64,000 nucleotides of DNA from a virus. Lineage: Duplodnaviria > Heunggongvirae > Uroviricota > Caudoviricetes. A model generated the notes under the pieces. The model did not search any database. It was not told the origin of the DNA and saw only the letters and a program-made list of their open reading frames with translations. Position 1 is the stretch's first letter. The number at the start of each line of letters is the position of its first letter. Location: IMG/VR virus record IMGVR_UViG_2706794671_000006. One strand, written 5' to 3'. Position numbers and translations under genes: made by a program. Positions 3,825 through 61,445 of this stretch are shown one piece after another.

Positions 3825-6220
3825 ATGACTCAAGTCGCGAAGAAAATTCTGGTGACGTGCGCACTGCCGTACGCTAACGGCTCAATCCACCTCGGCCATA
3901 TGCTGGAGCACATCCAGGCTGATGTCTGGGTTCGTTACCAGCGAATGCGCGGCCACGAGGTTAATTTCATCTGTGCCGACGATGCCCACGGTACGCCAAT
4001 CATGCTGAAAGCACAGCAGCTTGGTATCACACCGGAACAGATGATTGGCGAAATGAGTCAGGAACATCAGACTGATTTCGCAGGCTTTAACATCAGCTAT
4101 GACAACTATCACTCGACGCACAGCGAAGAGAACCGTCAGTTGTCCGAGCTTATCTACTCTCGCCTGAAAGAAAACGGTTTTATTAAAAACCGCACCATCT
4201 CACAGCTGTACGATCCGGAAAAATGCATGTTCCTGCCGGACCGTTTTGTAAAAGGCACCTGCCCGAAATGTAAATCCCCGGATCAATACGGCGATAACTG
4301 CGAAGTCTGCGGCGCGACCTACAGCCCGACTGAACTGATCGAGCCGAAATCGGTGGTTTCTGGCGCTACGCCGGTAATGCGTGATTCTGAACNNNNNNNN
4401 NNNNNNNNNNNNNAATGAGTCAGGAGCATCAGACTGATTTCGCAGGCTTTAACATCAGCTATGACAACTATCACTCGACGCACAGCGAAGAGAACCGCCA
4501 GTTGTCAGAACTTATCTACTCTCGCCTGAAAGAGAACGGTTTTATTAAAAACCGCACCATCTCTCAGCTGTACGATCCGGAAAAAGGCATGTTCCTGCCG
4601 GACCGTTTTGTGAAAGGCACCTGCCCGAAATGTAAATCCCCGGATCAATACGGCGATAACTGCGAAGTCTGCGGCGCGACCTACAGCCCGACTGAATTGA
4701 TCGAGCCGAAATCGGTGGTTTCTGGCGCTACGCCGGTAATGCGTGATTCTGAACACTTCTTCTTTGATCTGCCCTCTTTCAGCGAAATGTTGCAGGCATG
4801 GACCCGCAGCGGTGCGTTGCAGGAGCAGGTGGCAAATAAAATGCAGGAGTGGTTTGAATCTGGCCTGCAACAGTGGGATATCTCCCGCGACGCCCCTTAC
4901 TTCGGTTTTGAAATTCCGAACGCGCCGGGCAAATATTTCTACGTCTGGCTGGACGCGCCGATTGGCTACATGGGTTCTTTCAAGAATCTGTGCGACAAGC
5001 GCGGCGACAGCGTAAGCTTCGACGAATACTGGAAGAAAGACTCCACCGCCGAGCTGTACCACTTCATCGGCAAAGATATCGTTTACTTCCACAGTCTGTT
5101 CTGGCCTGCCATGCTGGAAGGCAGCAACTTCCGCAAGCCGACCAACCTGTTTGTTCACGGCTATGTGACGGTGAACGGCGCGAAGATGTCCAAGTCTCGC
5201 GGCACCTTTATTAAAGCCAGCACCTGGCTGAATCATTTTGACGCTGACAGCCTGCGTTACTACTACACTGCGAAACTCTCTTCGCGCATTGATGATATCG
5301 ATCTCAACCTGGAAGATTTCGTTCAGCGCGTGAATGCCGATATCGTGAACAAAGTGGTTAACCTGGCCTCCCGTAATGCAGGCTTTATCAACAAGCGTTT
5401 TGACGGCGTGCTGACAAGCGAACTGGCTGACCCGCAACTGTACAAAACCTTTACTGATGCCGCTGAAGTGATTGGCGAAGCATGGGAAAGCCGCGAATTT
5501 GGTAAAGCTATCCGTGAAATCATGGCATTGGCTGACCTGGCTAATCGCTATGTCGATGAACAGGCTCCGTGGGTGGTGGCGAAGCAGGAAGGTCGCGATG
5601 CAGATCTGCAGGCGATTTGCTCTATGGGCATTAACCTGTTCCGCGTGCTGATGACGTACCTGAAACCGGTACTGCCGAAACTGACTGAACGTGCAGAAGC
5701 ATTCCTGAATACAGAACTGACCTGGGATGGTATCCAGCAACCGCTTCTGGGCCATAAAGTGAATCCGTTCAAGGCACTGTATAACCGTATCGATATGAAA
5801 CTGGTGGAAGCACTGGTGGAAGCATCCAAAGAAGAAGTGAAAGCCACAGCTGCACCGGTAACTGGCCCACTGGCTGACGAACCGATTCAGGAAACCATCA
5901 CCTTTGACGACTTCGCCAAAGTTGACCTGCGTGTGGCGCTGATTGAAAACGCGGAGTTTGTCGAAGGTTCTGACAAACTGCTTCGCCTGACGCTGGATCT
6001 CGGTGGTGAAAAGCGTAATGTCTTCTCAGGCATCCGTTCCGCTTATCCAGATCCACAGGCACTGATTGGTCGTCACACCATTATGGTGGCTAACCTGGCA
6101 CCACGTAAAATGCGCTTCGGTATCTCTGAAGGCATGGTGATGGCTGCCGGTCCTGGCGGGAAAGATATCTTCCTGTTAAGCCCGGATGCTGGTGCTAAAC
6201 CTGGCCACCAGGTTAAGTAA
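3825..6220 (+). CDS. metG: methionyl-tRNA synthetase, frame interrupted by scaffold gap and duplicated flank
   Basis: HLGH motif (SIHLGHM), KMSKS motif, zinc knuckle CPKC...CEVC, C-terminal tRNA-binding domain; ORF track splits it at the N run. Confidence 0.9.
4052..4754. repeat. ~340 bp of metG present on both sides of the gap (approx 4052-4392 and 4414-4754), ~97% identical
   Basis: Both flanks encode [18 protein letters not shown]...PVMRDSE; 9 nucleotide differences, 8 synonymous, 1 Cys/Gly (EKC vs EKG). Confidence 0.85.
4393..4413. other. run of 21 N (assembly/scaffold gap) inside metG
   Basis: Literal n characters in the sequence. Confidence 0.99.
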
Positions 6221-16710: not shown

Positions 16711-17409
16711 GTGGATTGTAGCAATAAAATGGACGTAAAAATCACGATTTTGCAGGTTGATGTTGCCAACCTTCGCCCGAATACCTGGAACACCAATTCG
16801 GTTGGTGCGCAGAATTTCGAAAAACTGAAAGGTTCTATCGAAAAATTGGGCTTTTTTAAGCCAATTTTGGCTCGTGAACTTGAAGATGGATTTTTTGAAA
16901 TCCTCGGCGGCGAACATCGCTGGCGTGCCGCTATTGAGCAAGGAATTTCAACGGTTCCAGTGCTTTCTGTGGGCAAAATTAGCGATGTCGTAGCTAAACA
17001 GATGTCACTGGTGGACAACGAGCGATACGGTGAAGACGACCAAATCGCATTGCAACGCTTCATTGAAGAAATTCAGTCAGAACTTGACTATCAACTGTCT
17101 GAAATCGCCCCGTATGACGACGAAATCTCGATGGTTTTAGCAAAAGAGGCGGCAATCGACCTTGAAGCACTGGAGGCGTTGTCTCGTGGTAGTGATGAGC
17201 CTGTCGATACCGACAAACGAGAGAAAACCGAACGTGTCGGTGCGGAACATCAGACCATGCGCTTCAAAGTAACCTTCGATGCGTCAGATCGCGTTGCAGA
17301 AACCATAAAAAACATCATCAAAGACCAGGCAATTAATACTGGCAATGAAATGGAAAACGCTGGTGAGGCTCTAGTGTGGCTGGTCGACTACTACAAGGAG
17401 CGTATGTAA
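16711..17409 (+). CDS. ParB/Srx-like nuclease-domain protein
   Basis: ParB box-like LGGEHRWRAAIEQGISTVPV; acidic C-terminal half. Start (GTG 16711 or ATG 16729) uncertain. Confidence 0.7.
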   Translation: MDCSNKMDVKITILQVDVANLRPNTWNTNSVGAQNFEKLKGSIEKLGFFKPILARELEDGFFEILGGEHRWRAAIEQGISTVPVLSVGKISDVVAKQMSLVDNERYGEDDQIALQRFIEEIQSELDYQLSEIAPYDDEISMVLAKEAAIDLEALEALSRGSDEPVDTDKREKTERVGAEHQTMRFKVTFDASDRVAETIKNIIKDQAINTGNEMENAGEALVWLVDYYKERM

Positions 17410-44500: not shown

Positions 44501-44901
44501 ATATTAGTATAAGTGCCGCTCAAATTGGTGCTTTGCCTATCGGTGGGGGTACGATAACAGGTAATTTGACTGTAAATGGAAATGGCTCATTTAATGATGT
44601 TCAGATCCGCTCAGATAAGCGTAACAAGCGTAATCTGGTAAAGCTAGATAATGCGTTAGATCGTTTGGAGGCACTTACTGGTTATCTTTATGAAATCCAA
44701 CTCTCTGATGATAGTTGGAAAACGTCAGTTGGTTTAATTGCTCAGGATGCACAAAAAGCATTGTCTGAACTGGTAACTGAAGACACAGACGTTATATCTG
44801 GTGAAAAACGTCTGTGTCTTAACTACAACGGCATAATTGCATTGTTAGTCGAGGGCTTTAAAACACTTCGTCATGAGATTAAAGAACTTCGGGAGAAGTA
44901 A
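41530..44901 (+). CDS. tail fibre protein with C-terminal intramolecular chaperone (peptidase S74-like) domain
   Basis: Ala/Ser-rich region, six to seven ~38-aa repeats (ATKL.TAR.IGGVSFDG..NI.LPGVN..GNQ.TSGNAA), C-terminal RSDKRNKRNLVKLDNALDRLEALTGYLYEIQ. Confidence 0.75.
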   Translation: MWYREGTITFTQGSNTLVGAGTAWNVTANGVLPGMIVVAPDNKLYEIKSVTNDTTLTLVENYTGETQSDIPCRIITTYEGDLTQFSARFTALLSRMSGDAKTVRNWLTAVDEVTLEREDGTNVNVKPLSKIIAEHNKHVEWYENNTNAINSAGDKAKQAAASASAAAKSANLASSKATQASNSALDATASKNAANKSASSAKASETSALEAKNAAAISASTASTKATEATSSANAALVSKEAAKLSEMNAASGAGSASTSANQARESARSAKTSANQASTYASAARASKDEASRKSAEASTSASNASSKSAESAAKAEEAKQSQTSALASAERAEIAATRAERALSAISLHDASLTMKGIVKLSSETSSSSEEFAATPKAVKAAFDLAKSKYTANDATTSQKGLVQLSSDTNNASESLAATTKAVKSVKDLADRKAAINSPAFTGTPTAPTATQGTNNTQIATTAYVREAISGLVGSSPEALDTLNELARALGDDPDFATTMTNKLATKQPLDATLTALAGLTTAANKLPYFTGNDTAGLATITSVGRDILSKASVQAIIQYLGLKENGTSGDKIPLLSTANTWSAKQTFSNGLAGSLNGNSDTATKLKAARKIGGVPFDGSSDINLPGVNSTGTQSTSGNAASATKLATPRSIGGMLFDGTANIDLPGVNKVGNQSTTGNAGSATRLQTARTIGGVSFNGTANIDLPGVNKAGNQNTSGNAATATKLATARKINGVSFDGSKNISITPKQLGAAKYVANLATGNTQEWTTAQFVAWLNSQGAFDATQWSTRCSWSYGSNCYIGNASTGCGVIPLAGSVIEVFSTGTSNYTIRITTPSTSGGASGAVLNSEFIYTYNGDNYSPTWRRNYSSQNKPTASEIGALASNGNAVSATKLKTARNIGGVSFDGTANIDLPGVNKAGNQNTSGNAATATKLKTSRTIGGVSFDGSANINLPGVNTSGNQNTSGNAASATKLQTARTINGVSFDGTKNISISAAQIGALPIGGGTITGNLTVNGNGSFNDVQIRSDKRNKRNLVKLDNALDRLEALTGYLYEIQLSDDSWKTSVGLIAQDAQKALSELVTEDTDVISGEKRLCLNYNGIIALLVEGFKTLRHEIKELREK

Positions 44902-44986
44902 ACGACAGCTGTTGGAGTTTCTGGTTTCTACTGAATTTAAATTGTGGGGGTGATACTCACCCCACGCATTCAAAAGGAGGGGTAAA

Positions 44987-55756: not shown

Positions 55757-57075
55757 AAAAGTTGATCGCACTTAAGCATAAGCTGGACGAAATGAAAGCT
55801 ATGGGAACCAATGCAAAAAAAGAGGCATTGGCCAACATGGATGACTTCGAGCAAAGCATGGTTTCATTGATGCTCAACCCTTTCATCCGTTTTGGGGTAA
55901 AGAAATACAAAGTGGCAGAGCCGCTTAGTGAGTCCATCCCAAGTGACGAAAAAGCCATTGATGTACTGAATAAGCTGGCCTCTCGCGAGCTAACGGGGAA
56001 CGCAGCAATAGCAGCTGTTGAGTCTATCGTGGCGTCAATGTGCGCCGATGGGCAGGACGTGTTCCGTCGTTTCCTCTTAAAAGACCCGAAAGCAGGTGTT
56101 GGGATTAGCCTATGCAACAAGGTTTTTGAAAATCCCATTCCGAAATTCGAGGTGCAGCTGGCGTCACCGTATAAAGAAAAAGGCGACAAATACCCCTTCA
56201 AGCCAAATCCTAAAGCAAAATGGCCGATGATTGGCAGTCTTAAGCTCGATGGTTTGCGAGTAATTTGCGAGGTTATTGTTGACGAGGAAGAGGTTAACTT
56301 CCTTTCTCGTACTGGTAATCCAATCACGTCTCTCGATCACCTAAAGCCAGCAATGCTAGAATTAGGCAAACTTTCAGGCCACAAACACATCTTCTTCGAT
56401 GGTGAAGGAACTGCCGGTTCATTTAACCAGTCCGTATCTGCATTGCGCAAAAAGAACGTGCAGGCAATTGGCGCTATTTATCATGTTTTCGACTTCTTCC
56501 TACCGGAATGGCGAGCACAGGCTAAATCCAAAGAGTATGCAAAGACAGGTATGAAGCTGAAAGAGCGCCTGGCTATGCTGGTGGCGTTGTTTAAAAACGA
56601 TCGCAGTGAAGGCTACACACAAGACATTCACCTGCATCCGTTCTATATCATCCATAGCCACGAAGACTTCATCGAACGCTTCATGAAACGCCTGGACGAT
56701 AACGAAGAAGGGGAGATGGGCAAAGATCCGAACTCTGTTTACGAGTTTAAACGTACCCGCAGCTGGTGGAAGTTAAAAGACGAAGATTCAGAAGATGGTG
56801 AAATTATCGATTTTGAGCCGGGCGACCCGGACTCTGGTTTTGCCAACACGCTTGGAAAAATAGTTATTCGTCTTGAAAACGGCGTCATCGTTCGTGCGAG
56901 CGGCATTAAGCATAAATATCTGGACGAGATCTGGAACAACAAAGAGAAGTACCGTGGTCGTATTGTCGAGGTTCATTGTCACGAGAAAACACCTGATGGC
57001 AGCTTACGCCACCCACGACTGAAATGGCCGCGTTGCTTACGCGATACCGAAGATCGAATCGGAGATAAAGAATGA
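55753..57075 (+). CDS. ATP-dependent DNA ligase
   Basis: Adenylation motif I SLKLDGLRV (KxDG), FDGE motif; 440 aa. Confidence 0.8.
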   Translation: MKKLIALKHKLDEMKAMGTNAKKEALANMDDFEQSMVSLMLNPFIRFGVKKYKVAEPLSESIPSDEKAIDVLNKLASRELTGNAAIAAVESIVASMCADGQDVFRRFLLKDPKAGVGISLCNKVFENPIPKFEVQLASPYKEKGDKYPFKPNPKAKWPMIGSLKLDGLRVICEVIVDEEEVNFLSRTGNPITSLDHLKPAMLELGKLSGHKHIFFDGEGTAGSFNQSVSALRKKNVQAIGAIYHVFDFFLPEWRAQAKSKEYAKTGMKLKERLAMLVALFKNDRSEGYTQDIHLHPFYIIHSHEDFIERFMKRLDDNEEGEMGKDPNSVYEFKRTRSWWKLKDEDSEDGEIIDFEPGDPDSGFANTLGKIVIRLENGVIVRASGIKHKYLDEIWNNKEKYRGRIVEVHCHEKTPDGSLRHPRLKWPRCLRDTEDRIGDKE

Positions 57076-57287
57076 TCGTATTAAGTAAACGGGAGAAAGA
57101 AACGCTTCATGAAATAAGTAAGTGGCCGGAGTTCCCTCAGTACTGGAAGCCTAAAACGCGAGCTAATTTAGAGCGTTTAGGGTTGGTTGCAAACATTTCG
57201 GAAACGTGGTGCTCAGCCAACTACCAGTTAACTGATAAAGGGAAAGTATTGCTACAGCAATTAGTAGAATCAGGAGTGTTAAAATGA
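57072..57287 (+). CDS. hypothetical small protein
   Basis: 71 aa, ATGA overlap with ligase stop. Confidence 0.45.
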   Translation: MIVLSKREKETLHEISKWPEFPQYWKPKTRANLERLGLVANISETWCSANYQLTDKGKVLLQQLVESGVLK

Positions 57288-57436
57288 TTCCATACATCTC
57301 ATTAGCTTTTATTGGTGGCTTCCTTATCGGCTTCGGCATCTGTCGTGATTTAATTAAGCAGGAACTTAAAACCAAAACACTGTGCATCGGAAAGCGTGTG
57401 TATCGGGTAGTTCATGAAACAAAGGTTAGAAAATGA
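57284..57436 (+). CDS. 50-aa membrane peptide (below ORF-track cutoff)
   Basis: MIPYISLAFIGGFLIGFGIC...; ATGA overlaps at both ends link it to flanking genes. Confidence 0.35.
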   Translation: MIPYISLAFIGGFLIGFGICRDLIKQELKTKTLCIGKRVYRVVHETKVRK

Positions 57437-57723
57437 GCAATTTAACTTCTTGGGACTGGTGGTTGGCCACCTATTTCTTAGCGGTCGGAGTCGCATTCGC
57501 CTTTTACGTAGGTCAGTTAGTCGTAAAACTGTTGCTGATTAAATTTGCTAGTCATAAACGTATCGATGATGGTCTGTGGCGTCTTGGCACCCTGGTGGAA
57601 ACTCGCTACGGGCAACTTAAGGAGAACGAAACCATTACTATCCAAGCGAAACGATTCACTGCCACCATCACAAGAACACCTAGTCGTAGAGTGGCCTTGA
57701 TCAAAAAAGTCACAACCGAATAA
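57433..57723 (+). CDS. small membrane protein
   Basis: 96 aa with N-terminal TM segment WWLATYFLAVGVAFAFYVG. Confidence 0.45.
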   Translation: MSNLTSWDWWLATYFLAVGVAFAFYVGQLVVKLLLIKFASHKRIDDGLWRLGTLVETRYGQLKENETITIQAKRFTATITRTPSRRVALIKKVTTE

Positions 57724-57732
57724 AAACATATC

Positions 57733-57754
57733 GATAAGTATTTACTTACTTATC
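57733..57754 (+). promoter_or_regulatory. motif B palindrome GATAAGTA-TTTACT-TACTTATC
   Basis: Perfect 8-bp arms directly after the last CDS before the tRNA region. Confidence 0.45.
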
Positions 57755-57759
57755 CTTTG

Positions 57760-58480
57760 TGTATAAGATGACTTTGTTTTCGTTGAGATGCGACTGTTTG
57801 AACTTAAATACAAGTGCAAACGAAGAAGTCTATCTGGCAGTAGCCTAATAAGCCAAACACCAGCGAGGTCAGTTTCCAGCCTCGTTACCGAAATGGGACA
57901 CACTGAGCGAGTGTGATTGCAGAACGCAGGAGGGAACACTCATGTTCCCTCCGATGAAGTAACAGAATGGGCGGTCGGTATATTTTCAACTCCATATGAC
58001 TCCCGGATTCTTAGCCACTGACCGCCCATTCTGTTACGTCATTTTGTTCAATTATGTCGTTTATACTGGGTTAAAAAGCGGCGACGTAGCCCGGCTGGTA
58101 TGGTTAGCCAGCACACAACGTTGAGGCCATTACATTTTTATCAATTCTAAGGTTCTATTCACAGAGATACCGGCGAGCGTTGATATGTAACATGTTGGGC
58201 AAACATTCAATCGGAGTAGTGGCCTCAACGTTGTGAAGACAGGATTGTTGTGTAGGTTTAACCACTTTTCCACAACAAATGATTCCATACATCACATTGT
58301 ATAAATTACAAAGTAGGTGCTGTCCTCAGAAACATCATCTACTTAAAGATTTTGCCTTCTATTGAGAGAAGTCGAAAGCGTCTGACACTAACGAAAAGTG
58401 CAAGTAGCGGTGCGTTTCCTGGCAGAAACTAACACCGCCGCGATTGGCACTGTTGAGTAATAAATACTGGCAGTGCCGAA
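57760..58480 (+). other. non-coding region with multiple long-range inverted repeats upstream of tRNA cluster
   Basis: Stems GGAGGGAACA/TGTTCCCTCC, CAGAATGGGCGGTC...GACCGCCCATTCTG (~44-nt loop), AACGTTGAGGCCA...TGGCCTCAACGTT (~80-nt loop), GGCACTG...CAGTGCC. Confidence 0.5.
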
Positions 58481-58482
58481 TT

Positions 58483-58557
58483 GATGGTGTAGCTCAGCGG
58501 TAGAGCAGTTGGCTGTTAACCAATTGGTCGGTGGTTCGAATCCACCCACCATCGCCA
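58483..58557 (+). tRNA. tRNA-Asn (anticodon GTT)
   Basis: Manual fold: acceptor GATGGTG/CACCATC, anticodon loop CTGTTAA, T-arm GGTGG-TTCGAAT-CCACC, 3' GCCA. Confidence 0.8.
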
Positions 58558-58562
58558 ATTTA

Positions 58563-58649
58563 GGGGAGTTAGTCCGTAGAGGTAGCGGGGTAGACTGTAA
58601 ATCTACTGTCATTGCGACTCGGGTGGTTCGACTCTATCACTCCCCACCA
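58563..58649 (+). tRNA. tRNA-Tyr (anticodon GTA), type II with long variable arm
   Basis: Acceptor GGGGAGT/ACTCCCC, anticodon stem GTAGA/TCTAC with loop CTGTAAA, T-loop TTCGACT, 3' ACCA. Confidence 0.75.
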
Positions 58650-58653
58650 AATT

Positions 58654-58729
58654 GCCGATTTAGCTCAGTTGGTAGAGCAGTCGCTTTGTAAGCGAATGGT
58701 CATCGGTTCGATCCCGTTAATCGGCACCA
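58654..58729 (+). tRNA. tRNA-Thr (anticodon TGT)
   Basis: Acceptor GCCGATT/AATCGGC, D-arm GCTCAGTTGGTAGAGC, anticodon loop TTTGTAA, T-loop TTCGATC, 3' ACCA. Confidence 0.75.
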
Positions 58730-58734
58730 ACATA

Positions 58735-59215
58735 ATATTGAGAACATTGGCGTAACGGGGTCATATCCCAATCTATGAATAAATGTTGCGTTGCCGCGTG
58801 ACAACCAGTGTTCTCAACATTGTGGTGAATGCACAGGCTGATGTGCCGCAACTACAGTAGTGCGCGCTTTGCGGGGCTTGCTACAACCCTGTGTCGGAGA
58901 TCAGCGCCGACCATCACAATTTGGCTCTCTTGCAACAGCATAACGCTGAAATATGTCCAACCTGGTGCGGCCTGTTCACCCGCCGTTAGCTCCACGAAAC
59001 GGAGCGCACAACAGGTAAGAACATTTTCAGAGTTCGACTCTCTGAGTTGCCATTCGTGGTGGCACGCGAGACGTGAATGCTCTTTCCGTTGTGGTTGATG
59101 CGCAGACTGATGCGCGGAAAGAAATGCCCCAGCGACACACGAGGCGAGTTCACACACTGCAATGCAGTCAGTAGCCGGGGTCGCTAAGCCGGAGATCAGT
59201 ACCGGTAACCACAAC
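58735..59215 (+). other. ~480 nt highly structured non-coding spacer between tRNA-Thr and tRNA-Ser
   Basis: Multiple hairpins (GCACAGGCTGATGTGCC, GCGCAGACTGATGCGCG, GCTCC-ACGAAAC-GGAGC) and a T-loop-like CAGAG-TTCGACT-CTCTG without acceptor stem. Confidence 0.4.
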
Positions 59216-59219
59216 GACT

Positions 59220-59306
59220 GGAGAGTAGGGAGCATGGTGCTCAAGCGGTCTTGAAAACCGTCCCATTGCGCAAGCGATGATGGTTCGATTCCATTACTCT
59301 CCGCCA
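59220..59306 (+). tRNA. tRNA-Ser (anticodon TGA), type II; unusual D-arm
   Basis: Acceptor GGAGAGT/ACTCTCC, anticodon loop CTTGAAA, T-loop TTCGATT, 3' GCCA; D-arm GAGC-ATGGT-GCTC is non-canonical. Confidence 0.6.
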
Positions 59307-59308
59307 GA

Positions 59309-59386
59309 CACAGCGTTGAGCGGTTTGGCCTTTTAATCAACTCGATTAAGACTCCGCTAACATAAACCAGACCGCTCAACGCTGTG
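59309..59386 (+). repeat. perfect 16-17 bp inverted repeat (CACAGCGTTGAGCGGT / ACCGCTCAACGCTGTG) with ~46-nt spacer immediately 3' of tRNA-Ser
   Basis: Read directly; spacer contains GGCCTTTT. Confidence 0.7.
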
Positions 59387-59531
59387 TGTGAAATTCCACA
59401 TATTTTACACATATCCATTTACGCAATTTTTATTGTTCTTTCATACATTACTCTTATATTTTATTGTCGTTTTTTAACTGCTAAAATCGATACGATTTTA
59501 GCTAAAGTTTATCGTTAAAGGAGTAACGATT

Positions 59532-61445
59532 ATGTCATTCATTGACTATGATATTTTGTCAGCATCATCAAGCAAAGAGCTTAGAGAAAAACTTGCGGAG
59601 AAAATCGCAGAGGGTTGGCAACCTTTCGAGTCACCAAACATTGTTGAACCAAGTAAGGGCGGACCAAATGCGTACAATCAAGCAATTGTGCGATCTGGTG
59701 ATTTATCACAATTGCCCACACCGGTATCAAATGAAGATGAAGAGCCTGACTATTATTATGTAGTTACTATCGCAGGTCAATCCAACTCAATGTCATACGG
59801 CGAAGGACTGCCTATGCCAAAAACTTTTGATCGGCCACATCCTCGCGTAAAACAGTTAGCTCGACGCAGCAATATTAAACCAGGTGGTTTTGCCTGTAAG
59901 TACAATGAAATAATTCCCGCTGATCACTGTCTTCATGATGTACAAGACATGACTAAATTCAAGCATCCAAAAGCAAACGACTCTGAATATGGATGTGTTG
60001 GTCAGGGACTACACATTGGCAAAAAACTATTACCATTCATTCCAGCAAACGCAGGTATTTTGCTCGTTCCTTGCGGAAGAGGTGGTTCTGGTTTCACTGT
60101 TACAGGCTCTGAAGGCCAATATTATGAAGAGTCAGGTGCAATCGAATCATCTTTAAAATGGGGATTAAATACTCCTTTGTATAAGGATATTGTAGCCAGA
60201 ACAAAAGCGGCCTTAAGTAAAAACAAAAAGAATGTATTTCTTGGTGTTGTCTGGATGCAAGGCGAAGCTGATTTGGCAACTGGCAAGTACTCGCAGCATA
60301 ACGAACTGTTCCTCAAGATGGTCGAAGGTTTCAGAAAAGAGCTATCTCAATACGACGCACAATGTGTTTTCGGAAGTGCTGCAAATGTACCCTGGATTTG
60401 TGGCGATACGACCCACTGGTGGAAAAACAAATATCCAAAACAGTACGAAATTGTTTATGGTGGTTATAAGGGAAAAACCTCACAAGCAATTTATTTCGTT
60501 CCATTCATGAAAGATGAGAATGATAATAACGTATTAACCAATAGCCCTACAGATGATCCAGACATCACATCTATTGGCTATTATGGTTCCGGTCATCGCA
60601 AGGATAATAAAACATGGACTTCCGAGAGTAGAGAGAGTCATTTTGGTTCATGGCAGCGACGCGGAATAATATCTGATCGTCTCGCAACTGCGCTGCTTGC
60701 ACATTCAGCGAAATCATCTGCTTTTGTGAATGGCGTTACAGGTGAGATTATTAAACAAGAACAACCTACTCAACCTAAAAATGACAACATTGTCACAACT
60801 CCAACCCCGCGAACGGTTATTTCCTTAACTGGAGCTGGTGGTGATGTCGCTACTGAACAAGGATGGACTGTAACTGGTGCAAATATTCAGTCAGTTGAAA
60901 ACGGAAAAGCAATTGCTTTAACTAAAGCGGTTTCCAACGAAACTTGGACGATCAGTAAAGCTACTGACATAGCACAGGCTCTTCTTGAGAATGGAGGTAA
61001 ATTACTTTGTAAGTTTAAATTATCTGGAAACCCTGATCCAAAAAAAGCTAAGTTTGGCTTTGGTATATATTACAAAACCAGTAAACCTGTTGCTGACGAT
61101 ATATCATTCGACGGTACTGGGAGCCTGTTTCTGGCTAACTTCTTCCTTCAAACAATTGGAGGCAAGTTGAACATTATGATGCACAGGACAGGCAATAATC
61201 GAAATGTTCAGATAGACTCATATGGTGACTACGACAACAATTGGCACACTCTTGAGTTGCAATATGAGAAAGGCACAGGAACTGTAATTCCCGTTCTCGA
61301 TGGCAAGGCGGGGAGTAAATTCAAGCTGGTTAAAGACAATATTGCTCTTGGTGATGAGGCTTTTGTTTTAACAGATATAACAAACAACCAAACTCATGAT
61401 CTTGCTATCGAAACACTTACCATTAGCATCAACAACCCAACCTAA
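59532..61445 (+). CDS. SGNH/GDSL-type carbohydrate esterase with C-terminal lectin-like domain (putative)
   Basis: Block I VVTIAGQSNSMSYG; VVWMQGEAD block; beta-rich C-terminal ~230 aa. Confidence 0.5.
   Translation: MSFIDYDILSASSSKELREKLAEKIAEGWQPFESPNIVEPSKGGPNAYNQAIVRSGDLSQLPTPVSNEDEEPDYYYVVTIAGQSNSMSYGEGLPMPKTFDRPHPRVKQLARRSNIKPGGFACKYNEIIPADHCLHDVQDMTKFKHPKANDSEYGCVGQGLHIGKKLLPFIPANAGILLVPCGRGGSGFTVTGSEGQYYEESGAIESSLKWGLNTPLYKDIVARTKAALSKNKKNVFLGVVWMQGEADLATGKYSQHNELFLKMVEGFRKELSQYDAQCVFGSAANVPWICGDTTHWWKNKYPKQYEIVYGGYKGKTSQAIYFVPFMKDENDNNVLTNSPTDDPDITSIGYYGSGHRKDNKTWTSESRESHFGSWQRRGIISDRLATALLAHSAKSSAFVNGVTGEIIKQEQPTQPKNDNIVTTPTPRTVISLTGAGGDVATEQGWTVTGANIQSVENGKAIALTKAVSNETWTISKATDIAQALLENGGKLLCKFKLSGNPDPKKAKFGFGIYYKTSKPVADDISFDGTGSLFLANFFLQTIGGKLNIMMHRTGNNRNVQIDSYGDYDNNWHTLELQYEKGTGTVIPVLDGKAGSKFKLVKDNIALGDEAFVLTDITNNQTHDLAIETLTISINNPT

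Follow-up and report, generated by a model that had tools for sequence, protein, structure and literature searches.

Four tRNA genes and a recurrent two-domain RNA module in the non-coding island of an SSU5-type phage-plasmid

Why does a temperate phage-plasmid carry four tRNA genes, and what lies in the gap that separates the last of them from the other three? The window, by which we mean the whole 64-kb stretch of DNA analysed here, is an SSU5-type phage-plasmid of E. coli and is 99% identical to p09EL50. Its nucleotide identity is 97-99% to p09EL50, CMS-2020a and Cyrano, and 77.7% to SSU5. The tRNA genes lie in a non-coding RNA island of 1.8 kb (57.72-59.53 kb, + strand), which runs in the same direction as the replication genes upstream of it. 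With a probability of about 0.7, we read this island as the source of a polycistronic precursor containing four decoding tRNAs and three modules of the STnc100/PasD superfamily, organised as a mosaic cassette array. The tRNAs were already known; new here are the structured modules in the gap and in the leader.

The tRNA genes and their surroundings

ARAGORN calls four tRNA genes in the whole window and no others, each of them on the + strand: tRNA-Asn (anticodon GUU, 58483..58557), tRNA-Tyr (GUA, 58563..58649), tRNA-Thr (UGU, 58654..58729) and tRNA-Ser (UGA, 59220..59306). An earlier note, made from the sequence alone, had folded the same four genes by hand, and its coordinates match these calls exactly. 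The spacing it described was also confirmed, with three genes lying 4-5 nt apart and tRNA-Ser 490 nt further downstream. All four genes encode CCA. With the general Rfam tRNA model (RF00005, gathering score 29 bits), tRNA-Asn (G73) reaches 75.4 bits, tRNA-Thr (G1-C72, C2-G71) 66.2 bits and the class II tRNA-Tyr, which has a long variable arm and A73, 38.7 bits. The phage-type tRNA-Ser (A8, G73, long variable arm) does not exceed the gathering score.

The four tRNAs belong to lineages that are common to phages, including P1, P7, D6 and rV5-like, T5-like and T4-like phages. The tRNA-Tyr is about 91% identical to trnY of rV5-like phages and is absent from the relatives Cyrano and SSU5. Identity to the isoacceptors of E. 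coli K-12 amounts to 64.5% for Asn (asnT), 67.8% for Tyr (tyrU), 79.2% for Thr (thrU) and 63.9% for Ser, and the best chromosomal match of the Asn-Tyr-Thr block is about 83%. A host origin of the tRNAs, which the earlier note had named among the findings that would speak against its view, is ruled out by these values. RefSeq annotates all four tRNAs in p09EL50. The cluster is ordinary for a phage and is already annotated in near-identical plasmids; taken alone, it is one more temperate-phage case of tRNAs for over-used codons and changes nothing.

The island is mosaic and its content varies between close relatives. SSU5 carries only the tRNA-Asn as cargo, and Cyrano has Asn-Thr-Ser without the spacer. 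Among 5,426 complete E. coli genomes, only 4 contain the arrangement Asn-Tyr-Thr, two modules and Ser with at least 80% query coverage. Conservation with most relatives stops at about 59386, and a long, near-perfect hairpin directly 3' of tRNA-Ser (59305..59390, + strand) marks the 3' boundary of the conserved island. This hairpin corresponds to inverted repeat I1 (92% complementary), has 24-bp arms and a 38-nt loop with a second hairpin inside, carries no U-tract, and folds with -46.6 kcal/mol (z = -10.0). At the 5' end of the island, a leader segment on the + strand (57770..57880; GACTTTG...TGCAAACGAAGAA...CTGGCAGTAGCCTAA.AAGCCAAACACCAG) is homologous to the leader of the P1 ban operon and to a Klebsiella T1-like phage in a three-way alignment. 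Its matches in Rfam are limited to sub-threshold, tmRNA-like ones. A promoter scan of 57000-59700 returned no promoter-like or consensus site.

A two-domain RNA module in the gap and the leader

The 490-nt gap, which the earlier note passed over as empty, holds conserved structured RNA modules. Together, the gap and the upstream leader contain three copies of an unannotated module with two domains. The first domain, S1, is a long covarying hairpin enclosing a variable insert, and the second, S2, consists of an outer stem enclosing a second variable insert, which is flanked by two conserved hairpins. All copies described in the following are on the + strand.

The S1 domain of module 2 (58728..58827; inverted repeat I2) has arms at 58728-58750 and 58805-58827, and its 54-nt insert contains an anticodon-arm-like hairpin (GGG-GTCATAT-CCC). 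It folds with -36.3 kcal/mol (z = -4.83) and is 93% identical to the P1 copy. The S2 domain of this module, unit A (58817..58922), shows the outer stem TTGTGGTG/CATCACAA, the trinucleotide AAT and two hairpins, GCACA-GGCTGA-TGTGC and, after an insert of 45 nt, GTCGG-AGATCAGCG-CCGAC; it is followed by TTTGGCTCTC... Module 3 is preceded by two hairpins, GGTGCGGCCTGTTCACCCGCC and GCTCCACGAAACGGAGC (S0, 58960..59006), a segment that is also found in front of many other modules, namely in ES2, CobraSix, P1 and many viral contigs. Its S1 domain (59007..59093) reads CACAAC-AGGT-AAGAACATTT ... GAATGCTCTT-TCC-GTTGTG, and a partner search found 9/10 pairs at the canonical position. The insert carries a T-arm-like hairpin (CAGAG-TTCGACT-CTCTG, 59028-59044), and the domain includes direct repeat D4 to the tRNA 3' ends. 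Unit B, the S2 domain of module 3 (59086..59217), has the outer stem GTTGTGGTT/AACCACAAC, GAT in place of AAT, and the hairpins GCGCA-GACTGA-TGCGC and GCCGG-AGATCAGTA-CCGGT, separated by a 72-nt insert (fold z = -2.05). It ends 5 nt 5' of tRNA-Ser.

Units A and B differ in a compensatory manner. Block HMMs detect unit A with E = 1.4e-11 and 1.5e-6 and unit B with E = 2.2e-12 and 1.1e-8, and over the whole 64 kb they are significant only at 58805-58919 and 59074-59215. With the S2 covariance model, unit A, which is a seed member, scores 81.4 bits and unit B 81.8 bits. The remaining copy, module 1 (58114..58276), is degenerate and comprises a CACAAC anchor, S1 and a reduced S2. Its S1 helix (CAACGTTGAGGCCATTAC...GTAGTGGCCTCAACGTTG, 58116-58233) encloses an insert of about 80 nt and forms 20/22 pairs in a structural scan. 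The S2 covariance model gave no match in module 1 at E<=1, and we infer the reduced S2 part from its flanking motifs, GTTGTG (58230-58235) and CCACAAC (58270-58276).

The module is a real RNA structure on the + strand. Each of 33 distinct S1 strands has a complement of 9-10/10 positions at the same anchored site, and 90.8% of the cells are paired versus 32-51% in a slid register. Fifteen pairs are changed on both sides, and 0/500 shuffles scored as high. Many of the pairs are G-U, which points to the strand of the tRNAs. Moreover, the outer stem of S2 is compensated in lambda (GTTGTGCTG/CAGCACAAC) as well as in P1 copy 4 (GTTGCGGTG/CACCGCAAC), and the 3' half, although the pattern used for searching did not include it, is present as well in nearly all 98 distinct units. 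Throughout, the scaffold is near-invariant and the inserts are hypervariable. The loops of the two S2 hairpins (GCTGA/TCAGC) are strikingly complementary to each other and might form a kissing loop, for which one compensated variant stands against 2-3 uncompensated lineages.

Could the modules be devoid of any RNA function? They would then be recombination scars or decayed tRNAs that were spread recently as cassettes, and the true genes of the gap would be plp and upl, which the P1 reference genome annotates as hypothetical proteins on the opposite strand of the module region. We regard this as highly improbable. It is true that the inserts often hold T-arm- or anticodon-arm-like hairpins, suggesting tRNA remnants, that the mosaic island differs between close relatives, and that the whole spacer does not fold better than shuffled sequences (z = -1.3) and is not significant on either strand, only sub-domains being so. 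The upl frame is also open in the window, antisense across module 2, and has PHROG matches; these families are of unknown function, and only Upl-like ORF calls over the same DNA are hit in them. However, recent spread cannot explain covariation in which dozens of S1 sequences pair at the same position, nor the compensated S2 stems, and the G-U pairs specify the strand opposite to plp and upl. In the window plp is not intact, of 18 nucleotide differences within the upl frame at least 11 are non-synonymous, PGAP calls no CDS at this place in p09EL50, and the spacer ORFs have no Pfam match. In addition, STnc100 and PasD, the relatives of S2 discussed below, are experimentally detected RNAs. We reject the spacer ORFs as coding, as they lack a Pfam match and their substitution pattern is not coding-like, and consider the plp/upl annotation of the P1 ban leader to be a mis-annotation.

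Other identities were considered for the spacer. A hammerhead ribozyme, suggested by the motif CTGATG, was dismissed because the sequence has neither the invariant A9 nor the junction context. The anti-sRNAs AgvB and AsxR are another kind of RNA, 51-60 nt long and convergent to the late operon, with only CACAACA in common. A DNA element of the integron attC or MITE type, to which the GTTGTGG/CCACAAC ends could point, is disfavoured since the stems covary and G-U pairs mark one strand. A permissive Rfam search of the window spacer, covering ribozymes, GOLLD/ROOL, YrlA, tmRNA, DicF and rtT, gave nothing relevant, and a full-text literature search with the module motif sequence gave no paper.

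Distribution, relatives and possible fate of the module

The module is carried by at least 120 viral contigs and about 1,160 E. coli genomes, and it is present in the ban leader of P1 and in the late leader of lambda. In more than a thousand E. coli genomes, annotation pipelines leave this sequence blank. In 13-14 of the 120 viral contigs, tRNA genes occur at a distance of up to about 1 kb from the module, and in every case their strand is that of the module. The module is the constant part; the tRNAs form an optional cargo, co-oriented with it, that varies between relatives. The same layout is found in P1 downstream of the mapped promoter Pban, where the ban operon (trnA/trnT/trnI) also has the order Asn(GUU)-Thr(UGU) and, after it, the spacer modules seen here. 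Other temperate enterobacterial phages and phage-plasmids resemble the window in having the same tRNA lineages in a non-coding stretch by replicative-helicase or ligase genes; P7 has an identical tRNA-Ser, and D6 and the tRNA-Asn of SSU5 fall in the same group. Unit B is 82% identical to a copy in Cronobacter phage ES2, which is sited between Q and the lysis genes.

The S2 domain is related to STnc100, and via STnc100 to PasD, as indicated by reciprocal covariance-model matches. The Rfam model of STnc100 (RF02076) matches P1 copy 4 with the same architecture at 33.4 bits (E = 6.6e-6; gathering threshold 47 bits), and it has no match in 57800-59700 of the window at E<=10; the S2 copies of the window stay below every curated Rfam threshold. 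When the Rfam models were run on lambda, P1, ZC2 and CobraSix, only sub-threshold noise was obtained except for STnc100 in P1 copy 4 and isrJ in CobraSix. Conversely, an S2 model seeded without STnc100 matches 7/7 genuine STnc100 loci over their full length, keeping every helix in register, at modest scores of 16-26 bits whose E-values come from a shortened calibration. The S2 model gives 20.9 bits for lambda and 37.9 bits for P1 copy 4. STnc100 and PasD are Hfq-dependent prophage sRNAs that were verified by RIL-seq and Northern blots and have many RIL-seq partners. They lie between Q and the holin gene and combine a conserved structure with differing seeds.

STnc100 and S2 share an outer stem of 7-9 bp followed by AAU, then a hairpin on the 5' side, a middle part that varies and, abutting the outer stem, the 3' hairpin CCGG(G)...(C)CCGG. 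Their niche is also shared, between Q/tR' and the lysis genes and often after a tRNA-Arg. In contrast, the window copies differ in the sequences of their hairpins, whose loops are complementary to each other, are preceded by an S1 domain, and sit in a phage-plasmid tRNA operon instead of a lambdoid late region. STnc100 loci end in a Rho-independent terminator (GCCCCTCTCCGGAGGGGCTTTT), whereas the window copies have none, and a terminator scan found no + strand site in the spacer. Hfq binding and an sRNA function may therefore be lacking in the S2 domains of the window. The link to STnc100 and PasD would place these poorly understood prophage sRNAs in a much larger family and provide them with a second conserved domain, a logic of scaffold plus variable insert, and a possible biogenesis through tRNA processing.

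The island is probably transcribed into one polycistronic precursor from the + strand, which host tRNA-processing enzymes would cut into four tRNAs and several structured modules. RNase P is expected to act at the tRNA 5' ends, and RNase E together with exonucleases at the 3' ends, with CCA already encoded. Two stable hairpins directly 5' of tRNA-Asn (58404..58479, + strand) would be part of the pre-tRNA leader; the fold of 58380-58482 has -37.5 kcal/mol and z = -4.05, with 0/200 shuffles as stable. Release of a functional RNA from such a precursor would resemble the E. coli 3'ETS-leuZ sponge, an sRNA reportedly described by Lalaouna and colleagues in 2015 as being released from a tRNA precursor spacer. 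The likeness is by analogy, in that tRNA-processing enzymes would cut a functional RNA out of a polycistronic pre-tRNA; there is no kinship in sequence or structure to the window modules. Because S2 shares a superfamily with Hfq-dependent base-pairing sRNAs, the variable inserts are likely to be functional, target-specifying parts. The island itself is a mosaic array of cassettes that are exchanged horizontally.

Alternatively, S1 and S2 might be cis-acting processing or stability elements, either tRNA-like or directing RNase III or RNase E, and not trans-acting sRNAs. In this case, the modules would punctuate a long untranslated transcript and shield the downstream RNA (the late mRNAs of lambda, the ban mRNA of P1, tRNA-Ser in the window) from 5'-end-dependent decay after upstream cleavage. 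Their position fits such a role: S1 starts within a few nt of the terminator tR' in lambda and of a tRNA 3' end in P1 (trnT) and in the window (tRNA-Thr), and S2 ends 4-10 nt 5' of a tRNA in the window, L009 and ZC2. S1 is moreover a nearly perfect duplex of 17-22 bp, which is the size of an RNase III substrate, S2 is cloverleaf-like with an outer stem that abuts the 3' hairpin in the manner of an acceptor/T stack, and the terminator typical of Hfq sRNAs is absent from the window copies. On the other hand, hypervariable inserts on an almost invariant scaffold are left unexplained, as is the trans action of relatives with many RIL-seq partners. We take this alternative seriously, but the odds are against it.

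A further proposal, tentative and slightly less probable still, extends the view of a precursor with modules of the STnc100/PasD superfamily. S1 and S2 might constitute a single, very widespread and so far unrecognised modular family of phage RNAs whose scaffold displays the hypervariable inserts as exchangeable payloads and is excised by the host tRNA-processing machinery. STnc100, PasD, the late leader of lambda and the P1 region annotated as plp/upl would all be members of such a family. The near-invariant scaffold would be compactly folded, possibly with an elbow formed by a kissing loop and with a GTTGTGG strand that can switch; the payloads would be seeds of sRNAs or else imitate tRNA arms and rRNA helices, and the units would be excised from tRNA-containing or late-operon transcripts. 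If true, phages would use these plug-and-play RNA cassettes to manipulate the regulation of the host or as decoys for defences that target RNA, tRNAs being one kind of cargo in the same array. The ideas on the module are directly testable in lambda and P1, the best-studied phages.

tRNA supply and the class of the tRNA-Ser

The identity elements of the corresponding host tRNAs are retained in all four, and hence host synthetases should charge them. Following the E. coli tRNA identity rules, which supply the synthetase determinants, an alignment to K-12 shows GUU and G73 in tRNA-Asn; GUA, A73 and the long variable arm in tRNA-Tyr; G1-C72, C2-G71 and GU at positions 35-36 in tRNA-Thr; and G1 G2 A3, G73 and the long variable arm in tRNA-Ser. 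The tRNAs would then add decoding capacity, with Ser(UGA) and Thr(UGU) matching codons that the element over-uses. Compared with a K-12 sample of only about 22,000 codons from self-called ORFs, the codons TCA (2.1x), TCT (2.2x), ACA (1.7x) and ACT (1.5x) rank among the most enriched in the window. The Asn codons are weakly enriched (1.2x) and the Tyr codons are not (TAT 0.9x, TAC 1.2x). Thus, of the adjustment to codon usage suggested in the earlier note, a codon-supply role is supported for tRNA-Ser and tRNA-Thr (1.5-2.2x), with a weak signal for tRNA-Asn and none for tRNA-Tyr.

The gain from tRNA-Asn, and above all from tRNA-Tyr, might rather lie in a buffer against tRNA depletion. In the strongest form of this counter-defence idea, which goes back to the earlier note, the tRNAs, notably Tyr(GUA) and Asn(GUU), would be kept mainly to replace host tRNAs cleaved or depleted by anticodon nucleases or retron effectors, so that the lytic cycle could be completed, or the phage-plasmid maintained, in hosts that carry such defences. 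We consider this main purpose rather unlikely. Codon supply leaves the tRNA-Tyr unexplained, its codons not being enriched; the gene is present or absent among close relatives, as would be expected of an accessory trait, and the anticodon stems are unlike those of the host. However, the codons with the strongest enrichment are those read by Ser and Thr, as plain codon supply predicts, and the set Asn, Thr, Arg-UCU, Ile/Met-CAU and Ser-UGA recurs across phages. Most of the codons read by this recurrent set end in A and are rare in E. coli. Neither a system that targets tRNAs nor a trigger was identified.

The anticodon loops also argue against resistance through loop mutation. They are the same as in K-12 for Asn (CTGTTAA), Tyr (CTGTAAA) and Ser, and the loop of tRNA-Thr (TTTGTAA versus CTTGTAA in the host) differs only at position 32. 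The nuclease-resistant variants envisaged earlier thus find no indication here. A precedent for counter-defence is the tRNA-Tyr of T5, which rescues the phage from retron-Eco7 PtuAB purely via promoter-dependent supply; the E. coli tRNA-Tyr also rescues when a phage promoter drives it (PMC11555353). The tRNA-Lys of T5 is reported to neutralise PARIS (PMC11464382). Like T5, the window encodes a tRNA-Tyr(GUA) distinct from the host gene within a tRNA-rich region. Unlike T5, which is lytic, the element is a temperate phage-plasmid, and neither a strong promoter was detected nor a cognate defence identified. By analogy, extra supply that offsets tRNA depletion is possible, most plausibly for tRNA-Tyr.

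The tRNA-Ser differs in its architecture. The unusual D-arm reported in the earlier note (GAGC-ATGGT-GCTC) was read correctly. It is the conserved hallmark of a widespread lineage of phage tRNA-Ser, and the nuclease resistance proposed for it found no support. Across five phage lineages, the D-stem has 4-5 bp with a GG loop of 3-5 nt and covaries fully. The variable arm has 6 bp. The best model of the clan is tRNA-Sec, with 44.6 bits against a gathering score of 47, a near-match due to the D-arm and the acceptor geometry. The failure with the general tRNA model is likewise attributed to the compact, Sec-like D-arm and to a possible 8/4 geometry of acceptor and T-stem. A selenocysteine or suppressor tRNA was rejected, since its anticodon, UGA, decodes serine codons of the type UCN and is not UCA.

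These properties fit the published class of (8/4) tRNA-Ser, or allo-tRNAs, which Mukai et al. 2017 reported in bacteriophage tRNA clusters. In this class (PMC5389517), the 12-bp acceptor branch is split into 8 + 4 instead of 7 + 5 bp, and its members have a Sec-like D-arm with a longer stem and a loop of tetraloop size, a long V-arm, G73 or U73, and a serine anticodon. The passages of that paper considered here do not name the enterobacterial-phage lineage (P7, rV5, T5-like, T4-like). The long V-arm, G73, the serine anticodon and the compact D-stem-loop are all shared by the window gene, in which an 8-bp acceptor with a 4-bp T-stem is possible. RNAalifold returned this fold for six sequences, a 7/5 fold with a G49-U65 wobble being equally possible; the eighth acceptor pair, A8-U, is invariant in five phage sequences, so the two geometries are indistinguishable. 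The gene is 100% identical to that of P7 and about 90% identical to trnS of rV5, and its lineage was found in 351 phage records.

A two-domain RNA module around the tRNA genes

What our analysis adds to the tRNA cluster is its setting: the genes lie within a widespread RNA module that is unannotated, supported by covariation, related to the prophage sRNAs STnc100 and PasD, and also present in lambda and P1. The 490-nt gap between tRNA-Thr and tRNA-Ser holds two copies of one unit (unit A, 58817-58922; unit B, 59086-59217) with a shared architecture and compensatory differences. When only the 5' half of the unit was used as query, matches were found in at least 120 viral contigs. Although it lay outside the search pattern, the 3' half AAGCCGGAGATCAGCACCGGCCACCACAAC follows in nearly all of 98 distinct units among the matches listed; the insert between the halves (30-110 nt) is completely different from contig to contig. 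A second conserved domain lies upstream of the unit.

The consensus of the whole module reads CACAAC-AGGT-AAGAGCATTG (insert 1) CAGTGCTCTT-TCC-GTTGTGGTG-AAT-GCGCA-GGCTGA-TGCGC (insert 2), followed by AA-GCCGG-AGATCAGCA-CCGGC-CACCACAAC. Its first domain, S1, is the helix AAGAGCATTG/CAGTGCTCTT, lengthened by CACAAC/GTTGTG, and the second, S2, consists of the outer stem GTTGTGGTG/CACCACAAC enclosing two hairpins. Each of 33 distinct S1 3' strands has a complement of 9-10 out of 10 positions at the same place, directly after the CACAAC anchor. When 56 sequences were aligned without gaps after splicing at the anchor, 90.8% of cells were paired, against 32-51% with slid partners, and both sides had changed in 15 pairs, which none of 500 shuffles reached. 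G-U pairs are frequent, and the structured strand is therefore that of the tRNAs. In this set of 56, the search pattern itself dictated the 5' strand of the S2 outer stem; clean compensation of that stem is found in the independent copies of lambda (GTTGTGCTG/CAGCACAAC) and P1 copy 4 (GTTGCGGTG/CACCGCAAC) and in unit B of the window (GTTGTGGTT/AACCACAAC).

GTTGTGG has two mutually exclusive partners, CACAAC upstream and CCACAAC downstream, and either pairing is conserved. The loops of the two S2 hairpins are complementary in unit A (GCTGA/TCAGC, 58837-58841 and 58903-58907) and have changed together in unit B (ACTGA/TCAGT, 59107-59111 and 59198-59202), which suggests a possible kissing-loop contact; covariation at the loops is thin, with only one compensated type, G-U pairs and a few mismatches over the 56 sequences.

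Matches to the block HMM in the window fall inside the island only. Module 1 (58114-58276), a degenerate copy, lies upstream of tRNA-Asn, module 2 (58728-58922) in the Thr-Ser gap, and module 3 (59007-59217) ends 5 nt before tRNA-Ser; these and a leader segment (57770-57880) common to P1 and a Klebsiella phage are all on the + strand.

Distribution and relation to known RNAs

In the ban operon of P1 (NC_005856), Pban and a leader are followed by S1, by trnA (Asn) and trnT (Thr), and by three more modules. Two hypothetical genes, plp and upl, are annotated antisense to three S1/S2 modules with covariation support (L002, our P1 segment, 2237-2806; record 69472-70041). A protein-coding reading of this region could draw on PHROG matches, which are Upl-type ORF calls over the same DNA. 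A Pfam search with the spacer ORFs gave no match. The window has no intact plp, and at least 11 amino-acid changes go with the 18 nucleotide differences in its upl frame, which are mostly non-synonymous. Judged from these comparisons, both annotations are probably spurious. In lambda (NC_001416), a module with an intact S1 hairpin and the compensated S2 outer stem starts 8 nt past the late-leader terminator tR', between tR' and gene S (L126, our lambda segment, 990-1144; record 44789-44943), in a region without annotation. Cronobacter phage ES2 and Enterobacter phage CobraSix carry it between a Q-like antiterminator gene and the lysis genes, and T1-like Klebsiella phages upstream of a tRNA-like sequence. 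CobraSix (L005) also has an isrJ-family sRNA (393-466; 62.6 bits, above the gathering score) just past the Q-like gene and 5' of tRNA-Arg and the S1/S2 module; it is another sRNA in the late-leader niche of the modules.

The module is found in about 1,160 of 5,426 E. coli genomes, with no annotated feature beneath, and is almost confined to Enterobacterales among species-representative genomes. Among the matches listed, most copies have no tRNA; a tRNA within about 1 kb was found in 13-14 of the 120 viral contigs, in every case on the strand of the module. The anticodons that recur are Asn-GTT, Thr-TGT, Arg-TCT, CAT, Tyr-GTA and Ser.

No Rfam family matched the window copies, even at E<=10. 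The STnc100 model (RF02076) matches P1 copy 4 with 33.4 bits (E = 6.6e-6), below its gathering score of 47, and its consensus has the S2 architecture of outer stem, AAU, 5' hairpin, variable middle and 3' hairpin; the latter (CCGGG...CCCGG) adjoins the outer stem, as in S2. A published primer sequence (PMC12370729) led to genuine STnc100 loci of the form CATGGTG-AAT-CCCC..GGGG-variable-CCGGGAGGCACCCGG-CACCATG, which often follow a tRNA-Arg(UCU). A covariance model seeded with S2 units only, excluding STnc100 and P1 copy 4, aligned end to end with seven of seven STnc100 loci (16-26 bits, E = 3e-4 to 0.045) and scored lambda at 20.9, P1 copy 4 at 37.9 and CobraSix at 46.4 bits. STnc100 and PasD have been described as structurally homologous prophage sRNAs with different seed regions, adjoining Q and holin genes (bioRxiv 10.64898/2026.05.13.724894), and Northern blot and RIL-seq have confirmed PasD as an Hfq-dependent sRNA (PMC8550237). 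Given these matches and the shared architecture, S2 is best filed as a divergent branch of the STnc100/PasD superfamily, below the Rfam threshold for membership; unlike STnc100, the S2 copies of the window have no 3' terminator.

The module edges carry conserved motifs, CACAACA at the 5' edge and CCACAAC at the 3' edge (in module 3 of the window, 59007-59013 and 59208-59214). CACAACA is the target consensus of the GcvB R1 seed and is used by the phage anti-sRNA AgvB to sponge GcvB (PMC4104026). The match may be coincidental, since the motif has a pairing partner within the module in GTTGTGG. AgvB and AsxR were considered as relatives and rejected; they are different RNAs that have only the CACAACA motif in common with the module.

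The tRNA genes and the element that carries them

Over the 64-kb window ARAGORN calls four tRNA genes and no others, each on the + strand and matching the positions of the earlier note: tRNA-Asn (gtt, 58483-58557), tRNA-Tyr (gta, 58563-58649), tRNA-Thr (tgt, 58654-58729) and tRNA-Ser (tga, 59220-59306). All encode the 3' CCA. The general tRNA model of Rfam supports Asn (75.4 bits), Thr (66.2) and Tyr (38.7) and does not accept tRNA-Ser, whose best Rfam match is tRNA-Sec (44.6 bits; gathering score 47). Host genes carried by chance can be dismissed, with identities to the K-12 isoacceptors of 64.5% (Asn), 67.8% (Tyr), 79.2% (Thr) and 63.9% (Ser) and a best chromosomal match of about 83% for the Asn-Tyr-Thr block. 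By sequence, the four belong to lineages circulating among unrelated phages: those of Asn and Thr are present in P1, tRNA-Tyr and tRNA-Ser are about 91% identical to counterparts in rV5-like lytic phages, and tRNA-Ser is 100% identical to an unannotated P7 copy and 74-78% to the tRNA-Ser of T5-like and T4-like Klebsiella phages, its lineage comprising 351 phage records in total.

The unusual D-arm that had been folded by hand for tRNA-Ser is correct. It has a stem of 4-5 bp and a loop of 3-5 nt containing GG; it is conserved, and the stem covaries fully over five phage lineages (GAGC/GCTC, TGCTC/GAGCA, GCTA/TAGC, GTCA/TGAC). In the RNAalifold structure the acceptor has 8 bp and the T-stem 4 bp, but the eighth acceptor pair is invariant, so that 8/4 and 7/5 are not distinguished. 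Mukai et al. (PMC5389517) report an (8/4) tRNA-Ser class from bacteriophage tRNA clusters; the Sec-like D-stem-loop, long V-arm and G73 described there are present here too. Nothing in the sequence favours the nuclease-resistant variants proposed earlier: the anticodon loops equal those of the host except at Thr position 32. Alignment to K-12 shows that the identity elements expected for E. coli synthetases under established rules are kept.

Codon adjustment, also put forward before, holds for part of the cluster. When 42 long window ORFs (15,539 codons) were set against three K-12 regions, represented by 58 long ORFs (21,986 codons), we found TCT (2.2x) and TCA (2.1x), read by tRNA-Ser(UGA), and ACA (1.7x) and ACT (1.5x), read by tRNA-Thr(UGU), among the most enriched codons. 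Asn codons reached 1.2x and Tyr codons 0.9-1.2x. Codon supply is thus a good explanation for Ser and Thr, a weak one for Asn and none for Tyr. A documented alternative is extra tRNA supply against tRNA-depleting defences: rescue of phage from retron Eco7 PtuAB by a T5-type tRNA-Tyr depends on the promoter, and over-expressed host tRNA-Tyr rescues as well (PMC11555353). This reading may hold for Tyr, since some close relatives carry tRNA-Tyr and others do not.

Across the island and its flanks, identity is 99% both to plasmid p09EL50 of E. coli O104:H4 and to "phage CMS-2020a". For the adjoining helicase-ligase block it is 97-98% to the E. coli phages CMS-2020a, Cyrano and PhiR41_1, and 77.7% to SSU5, a Salmonella phage. 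Judged by these identities, the window is an SSU5-type phage-plasmid. A run of 21 N (4393-4413) marks masked or undetermined bases. The RefSeq record of p09EL50 annotates all four tRNAs and calls no CDS across the region matching 57.7-59.5 kb; the cluster is real, but ordinary and already in public annotation. Of 5,426 complete E. coli genomes, 775 contain a variant of the island, nearly always plasmid-borne, and only four the exact arrangement (at least 80% of the query covered). The cargo of this locus differs between SSU5-type phage-plasmids: SSU5 (L285) has tRNA-Asn only, Cyrano (L286) Asn-Thr-Ser without the spacer, and the viral contig L009 Arg(TCT)-Tyr-Thr-spacer-Ser plus a distal Met(CAT). 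What stays constant is the module, with the tRNAs as exchangeable cargo. In Cyrano, an antisense "hypothetical protein" is called over the tRNAs.

Possible working and further structures

Transcription of the island would run rightward, starting at a promoter near 57.75 kb or reading through from the replication genes; a scan of the island region found no consensus promoter. P1 uses Pban for its ban operon. RNase P would process the precursor at the tRNA 5' ends, and RNase E and exonucleases at the 3' ends, releasing four chargeable tRNAs and S1/S2 RNAs. The tRNAs would raise the capacity for decoding UCA/UCU and ACA/ACU; for Asn and Tyr they may act as a supply buffer. By analogy with STnc100 and PasD, the S2 units may act through their variable inserts. 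The modules may also serve in cis as punctuation for processing or stability, which is compatible with an sRNA-like role of S2.

Several other structures were observed. A long-range inverted repeat without other module features, CAACGGTTCCAGTGCTTTC ... TGAAGCACTGGAGGCGTTG (16949-17181; 17 of 19 pairs, about 190 nt apart), came from the scan for S1-like hairpins. Two very stable hairpins (58404-58479, z = -4.05) lie directly 5' of tRNA-Asn, outside the S1/S2 consensus. A near-perfect 24-bp hairpin (59305-59390; -46.6 kcal/mol, z = -10), with a 38-nt loop holding a second small hairpin, begins inside the CCA of tRNA-Ser and lacks a U-tract. The island homology of most relatives stops at about 59386, and the hairpin therefore marks the edge of the cassette; processing, atypical termination or a recombination boundary could each account for it. 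T-arm-like hairpins (GGTTCGAnTCC) are frequent in insert 1 of S1 (window 59028-59044; L002 about 2320-2338; and L008, L074, L090 and L109), and insert 1 of module 2 has an anticodon-arm-like GGG-GTCATAT-CCC (CAU) hairpin (58757-58770); these are either decayed tRNA genes or tRNA-arm mimics. A recurrent insert 2 (...AGCTAGATGGTGAGGTAATGGCTCACCATGGCGACGA...; L121, L123, L039, L045, L053 and L055) agrees with nt 254-282 of E. coli 16S rRNA in 25 of 29 positions (E = 0.001), suggesting that the scaffold displays a mimic of an rRNA helix or a captured fragment.
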